NCBI GenBank assembly: GCA_038065455.1
Contig: JBBTQX010000002.1
Coordinates: forward strand, 1 to 64,000
Origin: Patescibacteria group bacterium
GTDB lineage: Bacteria; Patescibacteriota; Minisyncoccia; UBA6257; GWB1-50-10
Reading direction: 5' to 3'
Length of the DNA: 64,000 nucleotides
A model generated the notes under the pieces. It did not search any database. It saw nothing but the letters and a program-made list of their open reading frames with translations, and was not told where the DNA came from. How positions within the stretch are numbered: position 1 is the stretch's first letter; every line of letters starts with the position of its first letter. Below, one piece after another: positions 1,842 through 53,950 of this stretch. Position numbers and translations under genes: made by a program.

Positions 1842-3476
1842 CTAGTACTCCCCCATTCCGCCAGGCATTCCGCCGCCCGGCAAATCCTTCTTGGGAATTT
1901 CAACGACGCCTGCGCCGATAGTAAGGTAGGTGGCCGCGACCGAAACGGCGTTCCGGAAGGCGGTCTTCGTAACTTTCAGCGGGTCAATGATGCCAGCGGC
2001 TTTCAAATCATCCATATCGTTTTTTGAAGCGTTGAAGCCTTTCCAATTTTCGTTCGGAGCGCGCTTCTTGAGCTTCTCGATAATTTTAGCCGGACTCTCG
2101 CCGCTGTTCGCCACAATGGCGGTCAAAGGCGCCTCAATGGCTCGGCTTAATATCTGGGCCACCGCTTCGGACACGGGATTCGCCTGGCTGTTTTTCGCCG
2201 CCGTCTCGTAAGTATTGAAAAGCGCGATGCCGCCGCCGGGCACGATTCCTTCTTCCATTGCAGCGCGCGTAGCAGCCACCGCGTCCTCTACTCGCTGTTT
2301 CAATTCTTTTTGGGCAGACTCGGTCGGCGCGCCCACTTTGATGATTGCAACGCCGCCGGAAAGTTTGCCGAGGCGCTCCTGTAATTTTTCCTTGTCGAAA
2401 TCGGAATCAATGGTTTTGATTTGCGCCTTGATTTGCTTCACCTGTTCGTCGATAGCATTCTTGTTTCCCTTGCCGCCCACGATTATCGTCTTGTCTTTAT
2501 TGGAGACTACGCGATGGGCGTGTCCGAGATCGCTCAATTCCACTCCATCCATTTTTTTGCCCAAATCTTCGGAGATGAAATTCGCGCCGGTCACGACGGC
2601 GATATCCTGGAGCATTTCTTTTTTTCGGTCGCCGAAGCCCGGCGCCTTTACCACGAGAACGCTGAAGATACCGCGAATCTTGTTCACGACGATGGTCGCG
2701 AGCGCTTCGCTATCCACCTCTTCGGCTACGATTAAAAGTTCTTTTTTGCCGCTCTGGATGACTTTTTCGAGAAGCGGGAGCAGATCGCTGATGGCCGAAA
2801 TCTTCCGATCAGTCACTAGAATATAGGGGTCTTCCAGAACCGCTTCCATCCGCTCCTGATTCGTCACCATATATTGCGAGACGTAGCCGCGGTCGAACTG
2901 CATACCCTCCACCATTTCATGGGAATTGCCGACGGTATTGGAGTCCTCGATAGTCACCACGCCTTCCCGGCCGACTTTGGACATTATCTCGGCAATCAAT
3001 TTGCCGATTTCGCTGTCTTTGGCCGACAAGGTCGCCACCTCTTCTATTTTTTTATTGTCGTTGATTTCTTCTTTCTGGCTCTCGAGCGCTTTCACAATCG
3101 CCTCACTGCCTTTTTTGAGCTCTTCGGCGAGCTGGATGACGTTGAAGCCTTTTTCGCGGATGGCCTTCTCGCCTTCTTCTATCATCGCGTGCGCCAAAAC
3201 AGTTGCAGTCGTGGTACCATCGCCCACATTGTCGTTCGTCTTGTCCGCCGCCTGTTTGATGAATTCGGCGCCGAGATTTTCGTATTTATCCTCAAATTCT
3301 ATTTCTTTCGCCACCGTCACGCCGTCGAAAGTGACTTGGGGCGCGCCATAGCCTTTTTCGATTACGACTGCCCGGCCACGAGGCCCAAGCGTCATCCTTA
3401 CCGCTTCGGCAAGCTTGTCGATACCCTTCTTCATAGCTACGCGGGCATTCTCGTTAAATTTTATTTCTTTTGCCAT
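1842..3476 (-). CDS. groL: Chaperonin GroEL
   Basis: TLGPRGR, GDGTTTAT, GMQFDRGY, KAPGFGDRKK; GGM tail. Confidence 0.99.
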   Translation of the reverse strand: MAKEIKFNENARVAMKKGIDKLAEAVRMTLGPRGRAVVIEKGYGAPQVTFDGVTVAKEIEFEDKYENLGAEFIKQAADKTNDNVGDGTTTATVLAHAMIEEGEKAIREKGFNVIQLAEELKKGSEAIVKALESQKEEINDNKKIEEVATLSAKDSEIGKLIAEIMSKVGREGVVTIEDSNTVGNSHEMVEGMQFDRGYVSQYMVTNQERMEAVLEDPYILVTDRKISAISDLLPLLEKVIQSGKKELLIVAEEVDSEALATIVVNKIRGIFSVLVVKAPGFGDRKKEMLQDIAVVTGANFISEDLGKKMDGVELSDLGHAHRVVSNKDKTIIVGGKGNKNAIDEQVKQIKAQIKTIDSDFDKEKLQERLGKLSGGVAIIKVGAPTESAQKELKQRVEDAVAATRAAMEEGIVPGGGIALFNTYETAAKNSQANPVSEAVAQILSRAIEAPLTAIVANSGESPAKIIEKLKKRAPNENWKGFNASKNDMDDLKAAGIIDPLKVTKTAFRNAVSVAATYLTIGAGVVEIPKKDLPGGGMPGGMGEY

Positions 3477-3483
3477 AGTTTTT

Positions 3484-3774
3484 TTAATCTAAAATCGCAA
3501 GGATATCATCCTCATCGCCGACCAGATATTTTTTCTTCTCGACTTCTATTTCATCGGGACCGTACTTCTTGAAAAGCACCCGATCGCCGATTTTGACCGA
3601 CATTGGGACTCTTTCTCCTTTATCGTTAAGTTTGCCGGGGCCGACAGCCACGATTTTGCCCTGCATCGGTTTTTCCTTTTCCACCGTATCCGGCAGAACT
3701 ATTCCCGATTTAGTGATTACTTCTTCCGCAAGCGGCTCGATGAATAAATGATTAGATAGTGGTTTGAAATTCAT
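3484..3774 (-). CDS. groS: Co-chaperonin GroES
   Basis: FKPL...TKSGIVLPDT...VAVGPG...DILAI. Confidence 0.98.
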   Translation of the reverse strand: MNFKPLSNHLFIEPLAEEVITKSGIVLPDTVEKEKPMQGKIVAVGPGKLNDKGERVPMSVKIGDRVLFKKYGPDEIEVEKKKYLVGDEDDILAILD

Positions 3775-3785
3775 GCTAATTATGT

Positions 3786-3853
3786 ATAAATTTTCGAGTC
3801 TGTAGATGATGAAAATTTATCTACAGAATCGAGCACCCCGCCGTCGGCGGGGT
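3786..3853 (-). repeat. Family C structured element, short copy in the groES leader
   Basis: Near-identical to 41416-41477 and 41551-41563; GC hairpin plus two interleaved stems. Confidence 0.8.
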
Positions 3854-3915
3854 AAAGGTTTTCTAGACAAATTTTCGTCGCTTTCGCTTCAGCTTGAAAA
3901 TTTGTAGAAAGCCCT

Positions 3916-3942
3916 TTAGCACTTCCGACCTTTGATTGCTAA
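3916..3942. promoter_or_regulatory. CIRCE element (HrcA operator) upstream of groES
   Basis: TTAGCACTT-N9-GATTGCTAA vs consensus TTAGCACTC-N9-GAGTGCTAA; hrcA is in this window. Confidence 0.9.
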
Positions 3943-3971
3943 CAGAAGATATATTACCCTACAATTTAATC

Positions 3972-5660
3972 ATGTCAACTGATTGGATTCCAAAAGAGGG
4001 TTTGATTCGCCGGGCTTACGAATTCGCCGATAGGGCCCATGGGGACATAAAAAGATTGCGCGGCGAGCCGTATATAGACCATTGCGTCGAGGTCGCCAAA
4101 TACGTTTCCGATTGGAGCTTGGGCGAAACGGCCATCGCGGCCGCTCTACTCCACGATGTCGTGGAAGACACCGAATATACTTTAGAGGACATCGAAAAAG
4201 AATTCGGGCCAGAGATAGCGAGCCTCGTCGATGGCCTCACAAAGATAGAAACGATGGAATATCCGGAAAAAGCCGACTCGGAAAGTTTGAGAAAAATACT
4301 CATTTCTTCCGCCAAGGATTTGAGAATTCTTCTCATAAAGCTCGCCGACCGGCTGAGCAATATGGGGACACTGGAATTCCTCCCGCTGGAACGGCAGAAG
4401 AAATATGCCTGGGAAACGGCGGAAATTTACGCCCCGCTCGCCTACCGCCTCGGCATGCAGAAACTTTCAGGCGATCTGGAAGATATGGCCTTCCCGTTTA
4501 TCTATCCCGACGAATACAAGTGGCTGACGGAAGAAGTGAAGGACGACTACTCGGAACGGCAGAAATATGCCCAGAAAGTGGTGCCGATAGTGATGAAAGC
4601 TCTCAAAGAACACAAAATCGAGCCGATCAGCATCGATTCCCGCGCCAAGCGCTATTACAGCCTCTACAAAAAACTTCTCCGCTACGATATGGATATGAGC
4701 CGGGTCTATGACCTGGTAGCGCTCCGCATCGTGGTCCAGACCGTGGAAGAGTGCTACGCGGCTCTCGGGGTAATCCACCAGCTTTGGCAGCCGATGCCGA
4801 ACCGATTCAAGGATTACATTGCCCGGCTGAAACCGAACGGATACCGGAGTCTTCACACAACCGTTTTCGCCCTGGACAACAAAATATTGGAAATCCAAAT
4901 CAGAACCAAAGAAATGCACGAAGAAAACGAGCTTGGCATCGCCGCCCATTGGGCCTATCAGCAGGTAAAAAGTTCGGCGGAAAAAAGCAAAAAATGGCTC
5001 GGTGTGAAAGACAAAAGTGAGATGCTCTGGATGGAACAATTGAGCAATTGGCAGAAACACGCCAACGACGAGGATGATTTCCTGGAATCATTGAAGGTGG
5101 ATTTTTTCAAAGACCGCATCTTCGTGCTGACGCCCCAGAACGACATAATCGATTTGCCGGCGGGCGCGACGCCGGTGGATTTCGCCTACCGCATCCACTC
5201 GGATATCGGCGACAACTGCGTGGGCGCGAAGGTGAATGGTAAAATCGCTCCCCTCGATTATGAGCTCCAAACGCGCGATGTGGTGGATATCATTACCCAA
5301 AAAAACAGAAAACCTTCCGAAGACTGGCTCCGATTCGTCAAAACCTCGCTCGCCAAAAAACATATCCGCGAAGTACTGAACGAGGACAGCCGGCGCATCC
5401 GGAAAAAACTGATTGTTCCCCAATTGGAAACGAAGATAGCCAATGACGACCGACCCGGCTATCTCAAGGAGGTTACCGCTGTCTTCGGCGAGATGAAAAT
5501 AAATATCACCTTTCTTCAAAGTTTTACGGATAACCGCGGGGCGCTCTCGTCCGTCATCGTGCGTTCCGACGTGCCCTCCCCCGACCGCATCCAGAAGCTT
5601 ATGGTGCGGCTAAAAAAGATTCCGGGCACCAAAGAGGCGAATCACAAGATTAGCCGCTGA
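3972..5660 (+). CDS. rel: RelA/SpoT family (p)ppGpp synthetase/hydrolase (HD, synthetase, TGS, ACT)
   Basis: LLHDVVED, IKLADR, RFKDYI..KPNGYRSLHT, EIQIRT, TPVDFAY; ATG 3972 chosen because TACAAT lies 6 nt upstream. Confidence 0.95.
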   Translation: MSTDWIPKEGLIRRAYEFADRAHGDIKRLRGEPYIDHCVEVAKYVSDWSLGETAIAAALLHDVVEDTEYTLEDIEKEFGPEIASLVDGLTKIETMEYPEKADSESLRKILISSAKDLRILLIKLADRLSNMGTLEFLPLERQKKYAWETAEIYAPLAYRLGMQKLSGDLEDMAFPFIYPDEYKWLTEEVKDDYSERQKYAQKVVPIVMKALKEHKIEPISIDSRAKRYYSLYKKLLRYDMDMSRVYDLVALRIVVQTVEECYAALGVIHQLWQPMPNRFKDYIARLKPNGYRSLHTTVFALDNKILEIQIRTKEMHEENELGIAAHWAYQQVKSSAEKSKKWLGVKDKSEMLWMEQLSNWQKHANDEDDFLESLKVDFFKDRIFVLTPQNDIIDLPAGATPVDFAYRIHSDIGDNCVGAKVNGKIAPLDYELQTRDVVDIITQKNRKPSEDWLRFVKTSLAKKHIREVLNEDSRRIRKKLIVPQLETKIANDDRPGYLKEVTAVFGEMKINITFLQSFTDNRGALSSVIVRSDVPSPDRIQKLMVRLKKIPGTKEANHKISR

Positions 5661-24423: not shown

Positions 24424-26269
24424 TGATTCGGTTATTATAGTACCACAAGAAAACGTCCCTAGCCACCGGCACGACGTTCAAACTGCCTTCCCGCGCATTT
24501 TCCACGAGTATTAAAATGGCGATTTTGGGGTCGTCATAAGGAGCGAAGCCGACGAAAAACGCGTTGGTCTTCGTGTTGTTCGAAACCTGGGCCGAGCCGG
24601 TTTTGGCGGCGACCGGAATCGGCAAGTCATGCAGAAGATAGGAAGTGCCGTAATCCCGAATCACGCCTTCGCGCATCCCCTTCCTCACTTCCGCGAGCGC
24701 CGGACCGATCTCGGCCGAAAGGTCGCGGAGAATCGCCGCCTCGTTCTTCAAAATCGTCTCGCCTTTGATATTTTTTATTTCATTCATCACGCGCGGCTTG
24801 TTCAGCTTGCCGCCATTTGCAACTGCATTTATGTAATTCAGAAGTTCGATGGGCGTCACCGAAAAATCGCCCTGGCCAATCGAGACGTTGAAAGTATCTC
24901 CCAAGCGCCATGGCTCGCCTTTTACTCTTTCTTTCCATGCTGGATCCGGCAAGAAACCAGCATCCTCCCCCGTTAAATCTATATTCGTCTTTTCGTCGAG
25001 ACCGAAATTATGCCACCACTTTTTCAATCTTTCTATTCCCAAGCCTTTCTGGTCTCCGAAACCGCCGCCCACGGAATAGAAATAGACATTCGAGGAACGA
25101 GCCAGAGCCGAATATAAATCCACCCAACCCTGCGGCCGCCAATCCAAAAATCGGCTCGGATGCTCCGGGTTGTAGGGATTCGGAACATCGAGATAGCCCG
25201 GCGAATAAATTTGATGTTTCGGATCCAAGATGCCTTCCGTAAGCGCCGCGGTTCCCACCAGGGGCTTAATGGTCGAACCGGGATTGTAAATACCGGAAAT
25301 CGCCCGATTAAAGAGCGGCTGATTGGCAGAGGTAAGATACTTTCCTATTTTATTCGAATCGAACGAAGGAATATTCACAAGAGAAAGAACTTCGCCGTTC
25401 CGCGGGTCCATCGCTATCGCAAGGCCGGTATCCCGGCCCAAATCGCGAAGCGCTTGGCTCAAGCGGTCGTAGATATATGTCTGGAGATCCCGATCAATAA
25501 AAGATGTAAGATTGTTGCCTGGAATCGGCTCCTGAACCGTTCTTTCTTTTTCGGTTCCGCCCACTGCGTTCGTGAGCGCAACCTTCTCACCGCTCGTTCC
25601 CCGAAGATATCCGTCGTAAAAAGCCTCGAGACCATTCCGCCCGACCTGGTCGTCGATATGCAACTCCGAATCTTTCTTCATATCACTCTTGTTTGCCAAA
25701 CCAGTATAGCCGACTACGTGGGAAAATTTGAAAAGCGGCGTTTGAACGCGCCGGAACGACGGGTCTATCTCCAAGCCCGGAAGATTCGCGGCGGAGAGGG
25801 ATACTAATTCATCGTGATCAAGATCGGGTTTCAAAAGAAATCGGTCGGTCAAATTCCAGTCCCGTTCCTCGAGAGCTCCAAGCACCTCGTTCTCATATAA
25901 ACCCAAAGTATTCAAAACATCTCCAATTGCCATTCGCCTTTCCGCAGAAGTTTTCGGAAGAGATTTCGGAACGAGATAGGCATCGAAAGCGGGCTCGTTT
26001 TCGACCATAGCCTTTCCGAAACGGTCGTAGATAATCCCCCGCGGAGCGGGCTCCGTTTTTATATCGCTCATATTCGCCGTAGCGCGCCGGGAATAGGGTT
26101 CATGATTCAAGACCGCCAAGTTCACAAATTGGGCGAAGACGGCAAGAAAAACCAGCGCGACCAAGATGATGAAATTCCTGAAAACCCGGTCCGTGAGAGG
26201 AATTTCCAAAAGGTCTTCCTCGACCGTTCGGTCGGTCAGAATGTCTTCCAGATTAAGCTCGGGATTCAT
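24416..26269 (-). CDS. mrdA: Penicillin-binding protein 2
   Basis: PRGIIYDR, GSTIK (SxxK), SSN, KTG; follows mreBCD. Confidence 0.95.
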   Translation of the reverse strand: MNPELNLEDILTDRTVEEDLLEIPLTDRVFRNFIILVALVFLAVFAQFVNLAVLNHEPYSRRATANMSDIKTEPAPRGIIYDRFGKAMVENEPAFDAYLVPKSLPKTSAERRMAIGDVLNTLGLYENEVLGALEERDWNLTDRFLLKPDLDHDELVSLSAANLPGLEIDPSFRRVQTPLFKFSHVVGYTGLANKSDMKKDSELHIDDQVGRNGLEAFYDGYLRGTSGEKVALTNAVGGTEKERTVQEPIPGNNLTSFIDRDLQTYIYDRLSQALRDLGRDTGLAIAMDPRNGEVLSLVNIPSFDSNKIGKYLTSANQPLFNRAISGIYNPGSTIKPLVGTAALTEGILDPKHQIYSPGYLDVPNPYNPEHPSRFLDWRPQGWVDLYSALARSSNVYFYSVGGGFGDQKGLGIERLKKWWHNFGLDEKTNIDLTGEDAGFLPDPAWKERVKGEPWRLGDTFNVSIGQGDFSVTPIELLNYINAVANGGKLNKPRVMNEIKNIKGETILKNEAAILRDLSAEIGPALAEVRKGMREGVIRDYGTSYLLHDLPIPVAAKTGSAQVSNNTKTNAFFVGFAPYDDPKIAILILVENAREGSLNVVPVARDVFLWYYNNRING

Positions 26270-26388
26270 CCCGTTAGAAACAGGATGCGCTTAACAAGCA
26301 CATCCGTCTAGATTCAAACGACTTTATTATTGCAATGTTCCCCTGTATTGTTTCCATGATATTTCTGAATTTGCCCGTTTCTAACGGG
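26270..26388 (-). mobile_element. Family A element (nuclease-less) at the mrdA start codon
   Basis: CCCGTTAGAAAC...GTTTCTAACGGG; ATGAAT on both sides (- strand). Confidence 0.85.
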
Positions 26389-26875
26389 ATTCATGAAGAT
26401 AACCGTATTTTCCAAAAAAATTCAAACAAAGCCAAAAAATCGAACCCAAAACCAGATTATAAACGACTTCGCCAAAAACAAAACCGCCGGCAAAAACACT
26501 GCCGGCCGTAAATTTGAGCGCTCCGTAAAATATTACTGTTCCCAAGCCGACGGCCAAAAGAAAATCTTGGAAGGACCGGCCCGTGAAGAAGTTTCGCAGG
26601 AAGAAGATTGCAAGAATTATCAAAAGGAGTATGGCCCAAGGCAACATCCAAAAATCGGACAAAATCAAAGTTACCGCAAAAGCAAAAAACAGCAGAATAT
26701 ATAAAAAACCCGGCTTTATCCGTTTCTTGAAATAAGGTTCGAGAAGCAAGCCAGAGAAAAATATGAGCGCCAGATTGGGATTGATTCCGCCTAAACTCAA
26801 AATTCGGGTCATTCCCAAAAAAATCAAAAGTCCCAGGAAAAGGAGTACAAAAACGAAACGGAACAAATCTCCCAT
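26381..26875 (-). CDS. mreD: MreD-like membrane protein
   Basis: Hydrophobic, INPNLAL motif, lies between mreC and mrdA; stop codon falls in the family A repeat. Confidence 0.75.
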   Translation of the reverse strand: MGDLFRFVFVLLFLGLLIFLGMTRILSLGGINPNLALIFFSGLLLEPYFKKRIKPGFLYILLFFAFAVTLILSDFWMLPWAILLLIILAIFFLRNFFTGRSFQDFLLAVGLGTVIFYGALKFTAGSVFAGGFVFGEVVYNLVLGSIFWLCLNFFGKYGYLHESR

Positions 26876-35620: not shown

Positions 35621-35908
35621 ATGTATCCCGTTAGAGACATTTCTATGTATTACAATTACGTTTTAAGAAGCAAAAAAGATGGGAAATGGTATACTGGCTA
35701 CACGAATGATCTACGGAAGCGCTTTAGCCAGCACAATAGCGATAAATTCCCTCAATGGACCAAAAATCGGGGTCCTTTTGAAATCATATACTATGAAGCC
35801 TGCAAAGATCTGCAAGATGCAAGGTCGAGGGAATATTATCTAAAAACAGGAATGGGTAAACGTTATATCAAAAATAGGCTAAAGCGCTTCCTGTCTCTAA
35901 CGGGATGA
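35621..35908 (+). CDS. Small GIY-YIG nuclease family protein encoded inside a family A element
   Basis: YYNYVLRS...WYTGYTNDLRKRFSQHN...YYEA...ARSREYYLK; its first and last codons are formed by the terminal repeats. Confidence 0.92.
   Translation: MYPVRDISMYYNYVLRSKKDGKWYTGYTNDLRKRFSQHNSDKFPQWTKNRGPFEIIYYEACKDLQDARSREYYLKTGMGKRYIKNRLKRFLSLTG
35625..35906 (+). mobile_element. Family A element, nuclease-encoding copy
   Basis: 15-bp perfect TIR ATCCCGTTAGAGACA / TGTCTCTAACGGGAT; same termini at three other loci. Confidence 0.85.
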
Positions 35909-40074: not shown

Positions 40075-40674
40075 TTAACGCGAATAGAATTGGCCGACCA
40101 CGTTTATATCGAAAGGTAGTTGCACTCCGGTAACGGGCGGTTTTGCCACGCACTCGCCTTTCAATTCCTCCGCTTTGAGCTTAAGCCACTCAGGCGGGGT
40201 GTATTGCTTCAACCGGAGTTGAATATCATCGAAAATCTTCGCCGAGCGGGATTCGGGCCGCACAGCAATAATGTCTTTAACCCTAACATAATAGGAAGGA
40301 ATTGTCACTTTTCGGCCATTCACGTGGATATGGCCGTGGGAGACGAGCTGGCGGGCGATTCTCGGAGACTTCGCGAATCCCAAAAGAAAAACCACGTGGT
40401 CGAGGCGGCTTTCGAGCTTGGTCATAATGCCGTCTTTGTCGGAATTCCGGAACATTCTCATCATCTGATGATTATTCAGCCCGTAAAGAATTTGGATTTT
40501 CTGTTTTTCCTGGAGCTGCTTTCCGAATTCGGAAACGGAGTGGCGCGCCTGGCCGTGCTGGCCCGGGCGGTAAGGATGGCGTACCATCGCGCACTTCGGC
40601 GAATTACAGCGGTCTCCCTTGAGGAAGAGTTTGATGCCCAGCGATCTTTCTTTTTTCTCTTTGATTCTTTTCAT
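40075..40674 (-). CDS. rpsD: 30S ribosomal protein S4
   Basis: KLFLKGDRC, PGQHG, QLQEKQK, LESRLD, ARQLVSHGHI; start set at the ATG abutting the element. Confidence 0.96.
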   Translation of the reverse strand: MKRIKEKKERSLGIKLFLKGDRCNSPKCAMVRHPYRPGQHGQARHSVSEFGKQLQEKQKIQILYGLNNHQMMRMFRNSDKDGIMTKLESRLDHVVFLLGFAKSPRIARQLVSHGHIHVNGRKVTIPSYYVRVKDIIAVRPESRSAKIFDDIQLRLKQYTPPEWLKLKAEELKGECVAKPPVTGVQLPFDINVVGQFYSR

Positions 40675-40796
40675 CCCGTTTAGAGACAGGATACGCTTAA
40701 GAAGCATATCCGTGAAGCATTAGCCGATTCGACTTTATTGGATTCTATTGATTGTTTGATAATCATGTTATTCATAAGTTTGATGTCTCTAACGGG
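40675..40796 (-). mobile_element. Family A element (nuclease-less) at the rpsD start codon
   Basis: CCCGTTTAGAGAC...GTCTCTAACGGG (one extra T); ATGAA on both sides. Confidence 0.85.
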
Positions 40797-40809
40797 ATTC
40801 ATATTTTTA

Positions 40810-40952: not shown

Positions 40953-41402
40953 TTAAACCCTTCTGGTCTTGGCCGGACGCGGTCCGTTGTGCGGAATCGG
41001 CGTCACATCCTTGATGGACAGTATATTCAAGCCCTTGCCGGCGAAAGAACGGATGGCGGAATCGCGGCCGCTACCCACGCCGCGCACGAAAATCTCCACG
41101 GTATTCGGGCCGGTCTTTTCCAATTTCTGGGCAATGGCTTCGGCGACTTTGGAAGACGCGAAAGGAGTCGCCTTCTTGGGTCCGGAAAATCCCAAAGAGC
41201 CAGCGGACATCCATGTAATCACGGCACCCTTATCGTCGGTTACGGTAATAATGGTGTTATTATAGGTGGCTTGAATATAGATACGGCCGTTTTCCCAGTG
41301 CTGTTTGGATGTGGACGAAGATTGCTTAGCCGGCGCCTTTTCGGCCGTCCCCGCTTCCTTCACCGCTTCGTCTTTGGTTTTTATGACTTTTTTCTTTCCC
41401 AT
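40953..41402 (-). CDS. rpsK: 30S ribosomal protein S11
   Basis: ATYNNTIIT, KKATPFAS, GVGSGRDSAIR, DVTPIPHNG. Confidence 0.98.
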   Translation of the reverse strand: MGKKKVIKTKDEAVKEAGTAEKAPAKQSSSTSKQHWENGRIYIQATYNNTIITVTDDKGAVITWMSAGSLGFSGPKKATPFASSKVAEAIAQKLEKTGPNTVEIFVRGVGSGRDSAIRSFAGKGLNILSIKDVTPIPHNGPRPAKTRRV

Positions 41403-41415
41403 TTGCCGATTATAT

Positions 41416-41563
41416 ATGAATTTTCGAGTCTACAGACGATGAAAATTCATCCATAGAATCGAGCACCCCGCCATCATCCCCGACTTGGAGCAGGATATTT
41501 TCTTTCATTATGATTTTCGTTATTTTATTGTTTTTCATATTTTTAGTGTAATGATGGCGGGGT
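41416..41563 (-). repeat. Family C element between rpsM and rpsK with a 42-codon mini-ORF (41410-41538)
   Basis: ACCCCGCCATCAT/ATGATGGCGGGGT 13-bp IR plus the motif shared with the groES leader. Confidence 0.8.
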
Positions 41564-41573
41564 AAGTGTTCCC

Positions 41574-41957
41574 TTATTTCAAATCGACTTTCCGCTTGCC
41601 ACTACCGGCCGTCTTCCTGACGTTGCCGCGCACCGTCCGGGAATTCGTTTTCGTCCGCTGGCCGCGCACCGGAAGCTTTCGCAAATGACGCACGCCGCGA
41701 TAGGCTTTAATATCTTTCAAGCGAGCGATGTTCTGTTTTATCACTTGCCGCAACTCTCCCTCAATCTTGTAGTTCTTCTCTATCATTGATTGGATGCGGT
41801 TCACCTCGTCCGGCGCCAAATCCTTCGCTCGTTTTTGGAGGTCGATTTTCGCGCCGACCAAAACCTTGGCGGCCAAGGTCGGGCCAATGCCGTAGATGTA
41901 GCCCAAGGCCACGTAGATTTTTTTGTTATCGGGTATGTTTACTCCGGCGATTCTCAT
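41574..41957 (-). CDS. rpsM: 30S ribosomal protein S13
   Basis: MRIAGVNIP, YIYGIG, YRGVRH..LPVRGQRTKTNSRT. Confidence 0.98.
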   Translation of the reverse strand: MRIAGVNIPDNKKIYVALGYIYGIGPTLAAKVLVGAKIDLQKRAKDLAPDEVNRIQSMIEKNYKIEGELRQVIKQNIARLKDIKAYRGVRHLRKLPVRGQRTKTNSRTVRGNVRKTAGSGKRKVDLK

Positions 41958-41959
41958 AA

Positions 41960-42076
41960 TTATCCTTGTCTTTGTTTATGCCTCGGGTTCTTGGCACATA
42001 TGACGTAAACCCGCCCTTTTCGACGGACGGTCTTGCAAACGCTGCAGATTTTTTTTACCGATGCTCTGACTTTCAT
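41960..42076 (-). CDS. rpmJ: 50S ribosomal protein L36 (missing from ORF track, 38 aa)
   Basis: Hand translation [38 protein letters not shown]. Confidence 0.97.
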
Positions 42077-42196
42077 CCCGTTAGAGACAGGATACGCTTA
42101 AAAAGCGCATCCGTGATATGTCGCTTGGTTTGATTATTCCGACCTGTTGGTTATTCATATTGATACATTATTCAAAATTTGTTTGTCTCTAACGGG
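42077..42196 (-). mobile_element. Family A element (nuclease-less) at the rpmJ start codon
   Basis: 15-bp perfect TIR ATCCCGTTAGAGACA/TGTCTCTAACGGGAT; ATGAA on both sides. Confidence 0.87.
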
Positions 42197-42208
42197 ATTC
42201 ATAAAACT

Positions 42209-51646: not shown

Positions 51647-51662
51647 TTTAAATTAGTCTATG

Positions 51663-51686
51663 GGTGGTATAATTGACTATACCACC
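51663..51686. repeat. Family D palindrome, copy 3 (contains the doxX stop codon)
   Basis: GGTGGTATAATTGACTATACCACC. Confidence 0.75.
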
Positions 51687-53920: not shown

Positions 53921-53950
53921 CTAGGTGGTGTCTTTAAAGACACCACCTAG
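53921..53950. repeat. Family D palindrome, copy 4
   Basis: CTAGGTGGTGTCTTTAAAGACACCACCTAG, perfect 30-bp palindrome. Confidence 0.85.

Follow-up and report, generated by a model that had tools for sequence, protein, structure and literature searches.

The closest published system to the one described here is Ssn with its NTS repeats (Chenal et al. 2025, Nat Commun 16:2388, PMC11893778). Ssn, a GIY-YIG nuclease of 94 amino acids with a single domain, is reported to recognize the NTS/SRM hairpin in single-stranded DNA, to bind only one of its two strands, and to cleave next to it. The ssn gene is often flanked by repeats, and the authors note a likeness to insertion sequences and to the REP/RAYT system. 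In this study, a 64,000-nt stretch from the genome of a Patescibacteria group bacterium (GCA_038065455.1, contig JBBTQX010000002.1, positions 1 to 64,000; hereafter, the window) was analyzed with respect to a motif in front of groES, which a preliminary description had taken for a covarying, pseudoknot-like RNA motif (family C) shared with the rpsK leader. With high confidence, the motif is one end of a small mobile DNA element, namely the right-hand terminal module, next to the start codon, of a copy that lacks the gene. This element is palindromic, resembles a miniature inverted-repeat transposable element (MITE), and fills the gap from the upstream stop codon, or from the promoter region, to the ATG of the host gene.

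Along the mRNA strand, the element runs from the stop codon or promoter region through a left module, the 5' arm of a GC-rich palindromic hairpin (P0), a nuclease gene, its relic or nothing, the 3' arm of P0, and a right module to the ATG. In the right module, stem 1 keeps the name given to it previously, P2 is the former stem 2, and a third helix, P1, which the preliminary description had missed, is formed by the 5' arm and the 11 nt before the ATG. P1 and P2 stack, or nest, to give a single long hairpin with its base at the start codon; the left end has this design in inverted form. The reading as a whole, in which P1 and P2 would serve the element in DNA and stem 1 would serve it in RNA, is proposed tentatively, as it falls just short of being probable.

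The likeness to Ssn is considerable. In both systems, a single-domain GIY-YIG protein of fewer than 100 amino acids is encoded between GC-rich palindromic repeats, and gene-less repeats lie near genes. Size and domain also fit, with 74–85 amino acids here against approximately 94 and a single PF01541 domain; cd10448 is the CDD family of Ssn. Moreover, P0 has the general look of dRS3/NTS, namely an A, a pyrimidine-rich CCCGC arm, a short loop, a GCGGG arm, and a T. The SRM pattern, written as a regular expression after the article (PMC11893778), did not match P0 on either strand, and it matched one site in the genome against one to four in five shuffles. Unlike in the published Ssn system, the nuclease gene here lies inside the loop of one hairpin and not between two complete hairpins, each end carries an extra P1–P2 module of about 60 nt, the copies sit exactly between stop and start codon, and they number 3–29 and not hundreds. 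Ssn/NTS apart, a literature search of main texts, without supplements, found no publication that describes GIY-YIG elements or MITEs either from Patescibacteria or from start-codon positions.

The Correia (CREE/NEMIS) elements of Neisseria are bacterial MITEs that are co-transcribed with neighbouring genes. The element resembles them in being short, gene-less, palindromic, and present in many copies, in differing in presence and absence among close relatives, and in being inserted beside genes and co-transcribed, with hairpins that enter mRNA leaders. Unlike Correia elements, its parent encodes a GIY-YIG nuclease and not a DDE transposase, it has no clear target-site duplication (at most one A), it is placed flush with start codons, and one of its ends has an extra helix that was seemingly selected in RNA. 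A likeness to riboswitch expression platforms and translational attenuators also exists, as one strand has two exclusive partners and the start region is either buried or freed; as in sequester/anti-sequester platforms, the order of transcription favours the freeing fold. Unlike these platforms, the module lacks both a sensor domain and a ligand, is part of a mobile element and not of a regulon, and involves no Shine–Dalgarno sequence. Repetitive extragenic palindromic (REP) sequences and the bacterial interspersed mosaic elements (BIMEs) built from them differ in that REPs usually lie after genes and not at start codons, and in that their REP-associated tyrosine transposase (RAYT) has the HUH fold where a GIY-YIG fold is found here. 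The features shared with that IS200/IS605-like system, which is cited in the Ssn article (PMC11893778), are extragenic palindromes that a small nuclease-type enzyme recognizes as single-strand hairpins, and an enzyme gene flanked by the repeats.

Architecture of the element and its GIY-YIG parent

The two sequences of the preliminary description were located on the minus strand, at 3853 to 3786 (groES copy) and at 41464 to 41416 (rpsK copy). A degenerate pattern of 27 letters, derived from the two copies, matched exactly these two places in the window and had no match in any of 100 shuffles. Both stems pair in the way that had been claimed, including the G-U pairs and the change from A-U to G-C, and the distances to the ATG are indeed 11 nt (groES) and 13 nt (rpsK). 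The GC hairpin that was said to be empty at one site and filled at the other was found as a 19-nt hairpin at groES and as two arms around 73 nt at rpsK. The 11 nt that separate the groES motif from the ATG are the 3' strand of P1 and not a spacer. In Pfam searches, the downstream genes were identified as Cpn10 (groES; E 4.5e-29) and ribosomal S11 (rpsK), and the gene upstream of rpsK as S13.

The whole genome (G000; 654 kb, 10 contigs) was then searched by BLAST for further copies. A third copy was found before rplF, the L6 gene, and after rpsH (G000:C5:14485–14554), and compared with the other two it has one more double change in stem 2 and extra G-U pairs in stem 1. Across the three copies, all variable positions of stem 1 remain paired, several of them through G-U, and stem 2 is altered on both sides at two positions. 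The preliminary description had proposed a covariance-model search as a check. A covariance model, R1, was built, and it gave five module matches in this genome. The module sample used below comprised 159 R1 matches, drawn from the window and 108 further loci (109 sources in all), of which 158 were distinct, namely 115 right modules, 35 left modules, and 8 unclassified modules that were dropped from the counts. The loci were the best-scoring R1 places together with BLAST matches; R1 rewards P1 and P2, and stem 1 lies outside the model.

The right module consists of the motif as previously described plus 11 nt and ends in GGC, and the left module, of about 60 nt, begins with (A)GGGC. The two modules are inverted versions of one design and have P2 and the P0 arms in common. 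An intact open reading frame (ORF) of 74–85 amino acids lies inside P0 in 8 of the 115 right modules, where an ORF was counted if it ended at most 14 nt upstream of the right module or overlapped the module by at most 3 nt. All seven ORFs that were tested encode single-domain GIY-YIG proteins (PF01541, Pfam E 2e-10 to 2e-18). The nearest solved chains are UPF0213 proteins (E 1.9e-5) and SLX1, and an NCBIfam search with the protein of a GIY-YIG ORF gave sub-threshold matches only. In both full-length copies inspected (L084 and L085), the ORF is flanked by the P0 arms and the modules. Judged by its sequence, the full-length form carries only the gene of this 74–85-amino-acid GIY-YIG protein, whose nuclease activity is predicted.

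Gene-less copies usually retain AT-rich sequence enclosed by the P0 arms (e.g., 41478–41550), the median length of this insert being 66 nt. The genome has seven GIY-YIG matches, all of them away from the five family C module matches; one of the seven is a small ORF in the window at 35645–35851 on the plus strand (PF01541, E 2.6e-16). A sister family was also seen, which agrees with family C in the P0 junction, in P1, and in the flush position of the ATG, but has a different short inner hairpin where P2 would be (G000:C5:17640–17693 in L066, L053:1948–2001, L072:2103–2156, and L013:1582–1631). This sister family precedes rpsK in the congener G003, the gene that carries family C in the window.

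Mobility, spread, and position of insertion

In a sample of 151 genomes of the order, R1 matches were obtained in 42, spread patchily across families and reaching 29 matches in one genome. A copy with 96% identity over 56 nt was found in G040, a genome of another family, where the S10 gene (identified by Pfam) follows it; the gene on its upstream side was read by eye as EF-Tu from the C-terminus. In the case of groES, the leaders of the congeners G001–G004 were all without the element, and the G001 leader consists of the promoter, a CIRCE-like repeat, 11 nt, and the ATG. The rpsM–rpsK junction was without the element wherever it was read among congeners (G001, G003, and G004), with TAA, 4 nt, and ATG in G004, whose S11 is 99% identical, and TAA, 7 nt, and ATG in G001. 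The rpsH–rplF junction was empty in G001–G003 and G005 (TAA, 1–4 nt, ATG), and in G004 it was filled in a form identical to that of this genome. The element is mobile, as each of the three sites is empty in at least some, if not all, of the four congeners that were compared. Three features by which a MITE is recognized were found, namely many short copies with inverted ends, long copies that bear a gene, and insertion polymorphism among close relatives. The earlier phrase "mobile RNA module" was right in spirit with respect to mobility; the moving unit is DNA, consisting of a GIY-YIG element and its gene-less derivatives.

The insertions are placed with precision. When the empty site TAAcATG of G001 was compared with the filled rplF site, the comparison fitted an insertion directly after the TAA with at most one A duplicated, and no longer duplication was seen. 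The position of the ATG was scored for ORFs of at least 50 codons at the 115 right modules. The ATG follows the end of P1 directly in 79 modules, after 1 nt in 2, and after 2 nt in 9, lies 5–6 nt inside P1 in 19, and could not be assigned in 6. At the other end, a stop triplet stands immediately before the left module in 30 of 35 cases by pattern, and the remaining five were read as TAA by eye.

These results bear directly on whether the motif is a cis-regulatory RNA of the host (a pseudoknot, riboswitch, thermometer, or ribosomal-protein site) common to the groES, rpsK, and rplF leaders, as the preliminary description had considered. The motif always lies on the sense strand of a 5' leader, its helices covary, and its alternative folds are isoenergetic (see below), all of which speak for such a regulator. 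However, it is missing from the same genes in congeners, and each of the ten downstream genes tested is from a different, unrelated Pfam family (S10, L6, L27, RpoC, ClpB, MraZ, Fpg, SSB, T2SS-F, and DnaB). Its distribution is multi-copy and patchy, the inverted copy is the other end of the same insertion, some copies contain a nuclease gene, and no conserved unpaired core resembling a ligand pocket is evident. A host regulator is thus considered very improbable.

The statement that the motif belongs to no known RNA family was borne out, as Rfam 15 at the gathering score gave only two tRNAs across the window. With E up to 10, the matches at both loci were at chance level, the best reaching 19.6 bits against a gathering score of 95. 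No Rfam ribozyme was among them, and the suggestion of a ribozyme found no supporting evidence. A self-cleaving ribozyme or an RNase-processing module that separates cistrons would suit the compact fold, the interleaved helices, and the location between cistrons, but the conserved nucleotides lie within helices and not in a junction core, and the left end has the same P1–P2 design in antisense orientation. This explanation is regarded as extremely improbable.

Pairing pattern of P1, P2, and stem 1

On the A3 alignment, P1 and P2 were 97.4% paired, compared with 74.4% in shuffles, and 18 of the 20 pairs change on both sides. Their covariation score was 0.55 versus 0.137; none of 500 shuffles reached 0.55, and slid controls gave at most 0.062. 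On A4, a structure-blind, gapless MAFFT alignment of 19 diverse 73-nt copies, pairing in P1 and P2 amounted to 96.5%, and double-sided changes occurred at 14 of 21 pairs. For stem 1 and P2 on A4, the pairing was 91.9% (83.8% in shuffles) and double-sided changes occurred at 13 of 22 pairs; the earlier claim that both stems are real and covarying was thereby upheld. Stem 1 alone was 87.7% paired on A4, with many U·G cells.

The kind of mismatch tolerated differs among the helices. Pair cells were counted from an alignment in which mismatches of the G·U and the A·C type carry the same score. For stem 1, 796 Watson–Crick, 64 G·U, 10 A·C, and 19 transversion cells were obtained, while the corresponding numbers were 1204, 8, 12, and 29 for P1 and 1056, 1, 2, and 2 for P2; the 95 P0 helices gave 1510 Watson–Crick, 54 G·U, and 71 A·C cells. 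The G·U bias of stem 1 is therefore absent from the neighbouring helices. After clustering of the copies, the ratio of G·U to A·C in stem 1 was 32:5 at 90% identity, 11:2 at 80%, and 6:1 at 70%, so that a ratio of approximately 6:1 holds. A composition null was also calculated, in which the loop strand alone is free to mutate against the U/G-rich 5' arm; 64% G·U would be expected from it, and 86% was observed (nominal p 1.3e-5). Moreover, stem 1 is specific to one end, being present in 80 of the 115 right modules and in only 1 of the 35 left modules. In the case of the left-module P1, an apparent excess of G·U (31:9) was also found, which stems from one fixed wobble beside one fixed A·C mismatch and is uninformative because these read alike on either strand. 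Taken together, the pattern makes it probable that selection acted on stem 1 in a single strand of the sense orientation, for which the mRNA is the simplest candidate.

Folding alternatives of the module

The preliminary description had offered either an H-type pseudoknot or a two-state switch. The interleaving of the covarying strands stands, as stem 1 (9–14 bp) and P2 (10 bp) alternate along the sequence. However, 0 nt separate their 5' strands, which overlap by 2 nt, and 0–3 nt separate their 3' strands. With connectors this short, a full H-type pseudoknot is geometrically implausible, and the two helices would be unable to form fully at once, judged by general pseudoknot geometry. P1 and stem 1 are mutually exclusive because both use the same 5' arm. 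Thus, the two-state switch is the nearer half of the earlier suggestion.

The two states were compared by constrained folding of the 115 modules, each with 25 nt of the gene. In the 80 modules with stem 1, the mean energy was −16.9 kcal/mol for P1 and P2 and −16.9 kcal/mol for the stem 1 state, and stem 1 was the lower-energy state in 52% of them. In the groES copy, the stem 1 state was at −16.3 kcal/mol versus −11.5 kcal/mol. On these calculated energies, the module would be best described as bistable. Folded as a whole, the groES element has an energy of −56 kcal/mol (z −7.3) and forms the left hairpin, P0, stem 1, and a short closing helix between the flanks. It was also observed that the last 5 nt before the groES ATG (3775–3779) deviate from the usual end of the element and are complementary to the host nucleotides 3916–3920; therefore, the minimum-energy fold closes the 141-nt insertion as a three-hairpin junction with the left flank beside the ATG.

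Start sites of the genome and the proposed role of stem 1

To place the right module in its translational context, the start sites of the genome have to be considered. GGAG or GAGG occurs at −18 to −5 in 36 of the 634 long ORFs, compared with 6.3% in shuffled upstream regions, and by this sequence count the genome is Shine–Dalgarno-less. The last 12 nt before the starts of long ORFs are A-rich and G-poor, with an enrichment of T at −7 and of A at −6, as would be expected where the preceding gene ends in a TAA located 4 nt before the ATG. Empty operon junctions are 1–7 nt long and have no Shine–Dalgarno sequence, and the 3' end of the 16S rRNA was not found in the genome by a simple pattern search. 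As Shine–Dalgarno sequences are lacking and the upstream region is A-rich, start sites should depend on an open A/U-rich upstream stretch.

For such a genome, the following mechanism is proposed. P1 and P2 would act as the terminal DNA structures of the element and are probably read as hairpins by the nuclease. Stem 1 would act in the transcript, where it pairs the 5' arm with a segment in the P2 loop. Since it is transcribed ahead of the 3' half of P2 and the 3' strand of P1, it could engage the 5' arm before they do. The 21 nt preceding the AUG, which are rich in A and U and which P1 and P2 would bury, would then be left unpaired, and with the start region kept open the insertion would not silence the host gene. 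We infer this role, an RNA-level decoy that opens the start-codon region, from pairing and transcription order, and it is put forward as possible and somewhat doubtful. The stronger form is that the element is doubly coded, with a terminal P1–P2 hairpin that the nuclease needs in DNA and a G·U-dependent stem 1, poor as a DNA helix and good as an RNA helix, that unmasks the start codon in mRNA; this form is unlikely as a complete account, although not far-fetched. Stem 1 occurs in 84% of the 19 copies in which the AUG lies inside P1 and in 69% of the 90 copies in which it follows P1, a difference in the predicted direction that is not significant.

Several observations weigh against this account. 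The probability that the 3' strand of P1 and the AUG are unpaired rises only modestly, from 0.31 in loop-shuffled modules to 0.40 in natural ones; in the rpsK copy it is 0.36 versus 0.38, and the minimum-energy fold there consists of P0 and of P1 with P2. Stem 1 is weak or absent in 35 of the 115 right modules. Where it is present, 56 of its 64 G·U cells have U in the 5' arm and G in the loop, which is more one-sided than simple G·U tolerance. The p-values are all nominal because the copies are related, and the near-perfect pairing of P1 and P2 comes partly from the selection of the sample because the search model rewards these helices. Finally, single-stranded DNA tolerates G·T as well, which makes it possible that stem 1 has a role in top-strand DNA.

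The last point leads to an explanation in DNA alone, in which all three helices would be single-strand hairpins read or cut by the GIY-YIG nuclease in the manner of Ssn/NTS, stem 1 would be confined to the top strand of the right end, and the fold of the transcript would be a by-product. Asymmetric ends are common in mobile elements, DNA hairpins tolerate G·T, and stem 1 raises the accessibility of the start site only to the modest degree given above, all of which agree with this explanation. In addition, Ssn nucleases bind one strand of the hairpin repeat as single-stranded DNA and are reported to be inactive on RNA or the reverse strand (PMC11893778). However, P0, P1, and P2 would then be single-stranded DNA structures as well, yet they show no G·T excess. 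Stem 1 takes the strand that P1 needs and would compete with the terminal hairpin in DNA too, and the right modules without stem 1 tell against this explanation also. It is considered unlikely, though it deserves to be taken seriously.

A translational role of another kind would be a short upstream ORF running through the module and relaying ribosomes to the host gene, as a conserved GUG or AUG follows P0 and, in each of this genome's three copies, the distance from a stop codon to the ATG is 4–6 nt. GTG or ATG is found after P0 in 111 of the 115 modules, 53 modules have no stop in this frame as far as the end of P2 (compared with 22 and 16 in the two alternative frames), and the module length is a multiple of three in 63. 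Nevertheless, the frame contains a stop in 62 modules, and both the frame relative to the host ATG and the position of the stop vary by subfamily, with a UAA stop in the copies of this genome. The peptides are conserved no further than the conserved nucleotides dictate, and the apparent start belongs to the conserved junction of P0 and the module. The small-ORF explanation was rejected, since the frame of the three copies is not kept across the family, and its probability is put very low.

A module-like sequence in a coding context was seen once. At L043 (G025:C1, approximately 232604–232651, minus strand), it follows a real GGAGG and stands in frame at the 5' end of a prepilin-like gene, where it appears to supply a leader peptide before a pilin-type hydrophobic N-terminal segment. 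This may be an element end captured as coding sequence, or it may be a clue to the origin of the module.

Coordinates and neighbouring features

The features of the groES and rpsK copies are summarized in Table 1. The likely groES promoter lies upstream of the element, and the element would therefore be transcribed inside the groES leader. The repeat that abuts its left end is one that we take to be CIRCE and presumably linked to HrcA. The same repeat is also present upstream of groES in the congener G001, which has no element there; it is partly lost by look in G003, and it was not seen in the groES leaders of G002 or G004.

Table 1. Positions of the element parts and of adjoining host features in the window.
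Feature	Position	Strand	Remark
groES start codon	3772–3774	−	Flush with the right end of the element; ORF 3484–3774
P1 3' strand, groES copy	3775–3785	−	11 nt before the ATG; pairs with the 5' arm
P2 3' half, groES copy	3786–3795	−	3' strand of the former stem 2
P2 loop, groES copy	3796–3810	−	Contains the 3' strand of stem 1 (core 3799–3807)
P2 5' half, groES copy	3811–3820	−	5' strand of the former stem 2
5' arm, groES copy	3821–3834	−	Common to stem 1 and P1
P0, groES copy	3835–3853	not applicable	GC-rich palindromic hairpin, collapsed to a 4-nt loop
Left terminal module, groES copy	3854–3915	+	Inverted P1–P2 hairpin without stem 1; R1 match 3847–3913, E 1.7e-7
Host CIRCE-like inverted repeat	3916–3942		9-nt arms, 9-nt spacer; its last TAA abuts the left end of the element
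Likely groES promoter	3951–3978	−	TTGACA, 16 nt, TAATAT; upstream of the element
Right terminal module, rpsK copy	41405–41464	−	2 nt from the ATG at 41400–41402
P1 3' strand, rpsK copy	41405–41415	−	
P2 3' half, rpsK copy	41416–41425	−	
P2 loop, rpsK copy	41426–41440	−	
P2 5' half, rpsK copy	41441–41450	−	
5' arm, rpsK copy	41451–41464	−	
P0, rpsK copy	41465–41563	−	13-nt arms (41551–41563 and 41465–41477), 73-nt AT-rich insert (41478–41550)
Left module remnant, rpsK copy	41564–41573	−	10 nt, directly after the rpsM stop codon (41574–41576)

The promoter question also concerns the right end itself, which could be an outward promoter with its −10 box in the 3' strand of P1; the host mRNA would then be leaderless or nearly so, and RNA structure would be irrelevant. 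A promoter scan found TCTACA, 16 nt, and CATAAT at 3806–3779 on the minus strand, matching at 9 of 12 positions. The groES-type subfamily keeps a C·U mismatch in P1, by which the 3' strand reads CATAAT or TATAAT, and the rpsK and rplF copies have 6 nt from the hexamer to the ATG. In most other subfamilies, however, these 11 nt do not resemble a −10 box and vary freely in concert with the 5' arm. The −35 position would be located in the stem 1 strand, which is variable, and the common form, with the ATG directly after the end of the element, leaves only 4 nt between the hexamer and the A of the ATG. An outward promoter is hence held to be improbable. As an observation, the −10-like hexamer of the groES-type subfamily lies at 3779–3784 and 41409–41414 in the window and recurs in L008, L010, L037, L038, L069, and others, 4–6 nt before the ATG.

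A reading of the motif region as a terminator was rejected, as the terminator scan gave no terminator-like site in 3650–4050. Eighteen public sequencing runs share part of 3400–4400. The contigs of one RNA run (X17) cover part of the neighbouring RelA/SpoT-like gene and not the element, and no joint across the element was found among the run contigs (one RNA run and three DNA runs), a result that bears on neither expression nor empty alleles.

Other repeats were seen in the window, all of them separate from family C. Two linked families lie in spacers of the ribosomal-protein operon (26265–26395, 40671–40803, and 42072–42203), and a GGTGGTAT-type palindrome family is found at 169–194, 1206–1231, 51661–51686, and 53922–53947.

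Implications

The new point of this study is a helix that is specific to one end of the element and has a pairing pattern that argues for selection in a sense-strand single strand. This repeat family of the genome is now tied to elements that carry only a GIY-YIG gene, and it widens an element type for which no description was found in print. The end-specific, G·U-rich helix suggests a mobile element that is selected at the level of the host transcript, and it offers a testable case. Moreover, conserved and covarying "leader RNAs" of ultra-small bacteria can be the ends of mobile DNA. The discovery of RNA motifs in ultra-small bacteria needs a check for empty sites. If the proposed role of stem 1 is true, a parasite lodged between the stop and start codon of a minimal, Shine–Dalgarno-less genome would stay translationally invisible. 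The genes that the element precedes include essential ones such as groES and those for RpoC, DnaB, and ribosomal proteins, and it is therefore also relevant to the initiation of translation, and to the coupling of genes within operons, in the absence of Shine–Dalgarno sequences.

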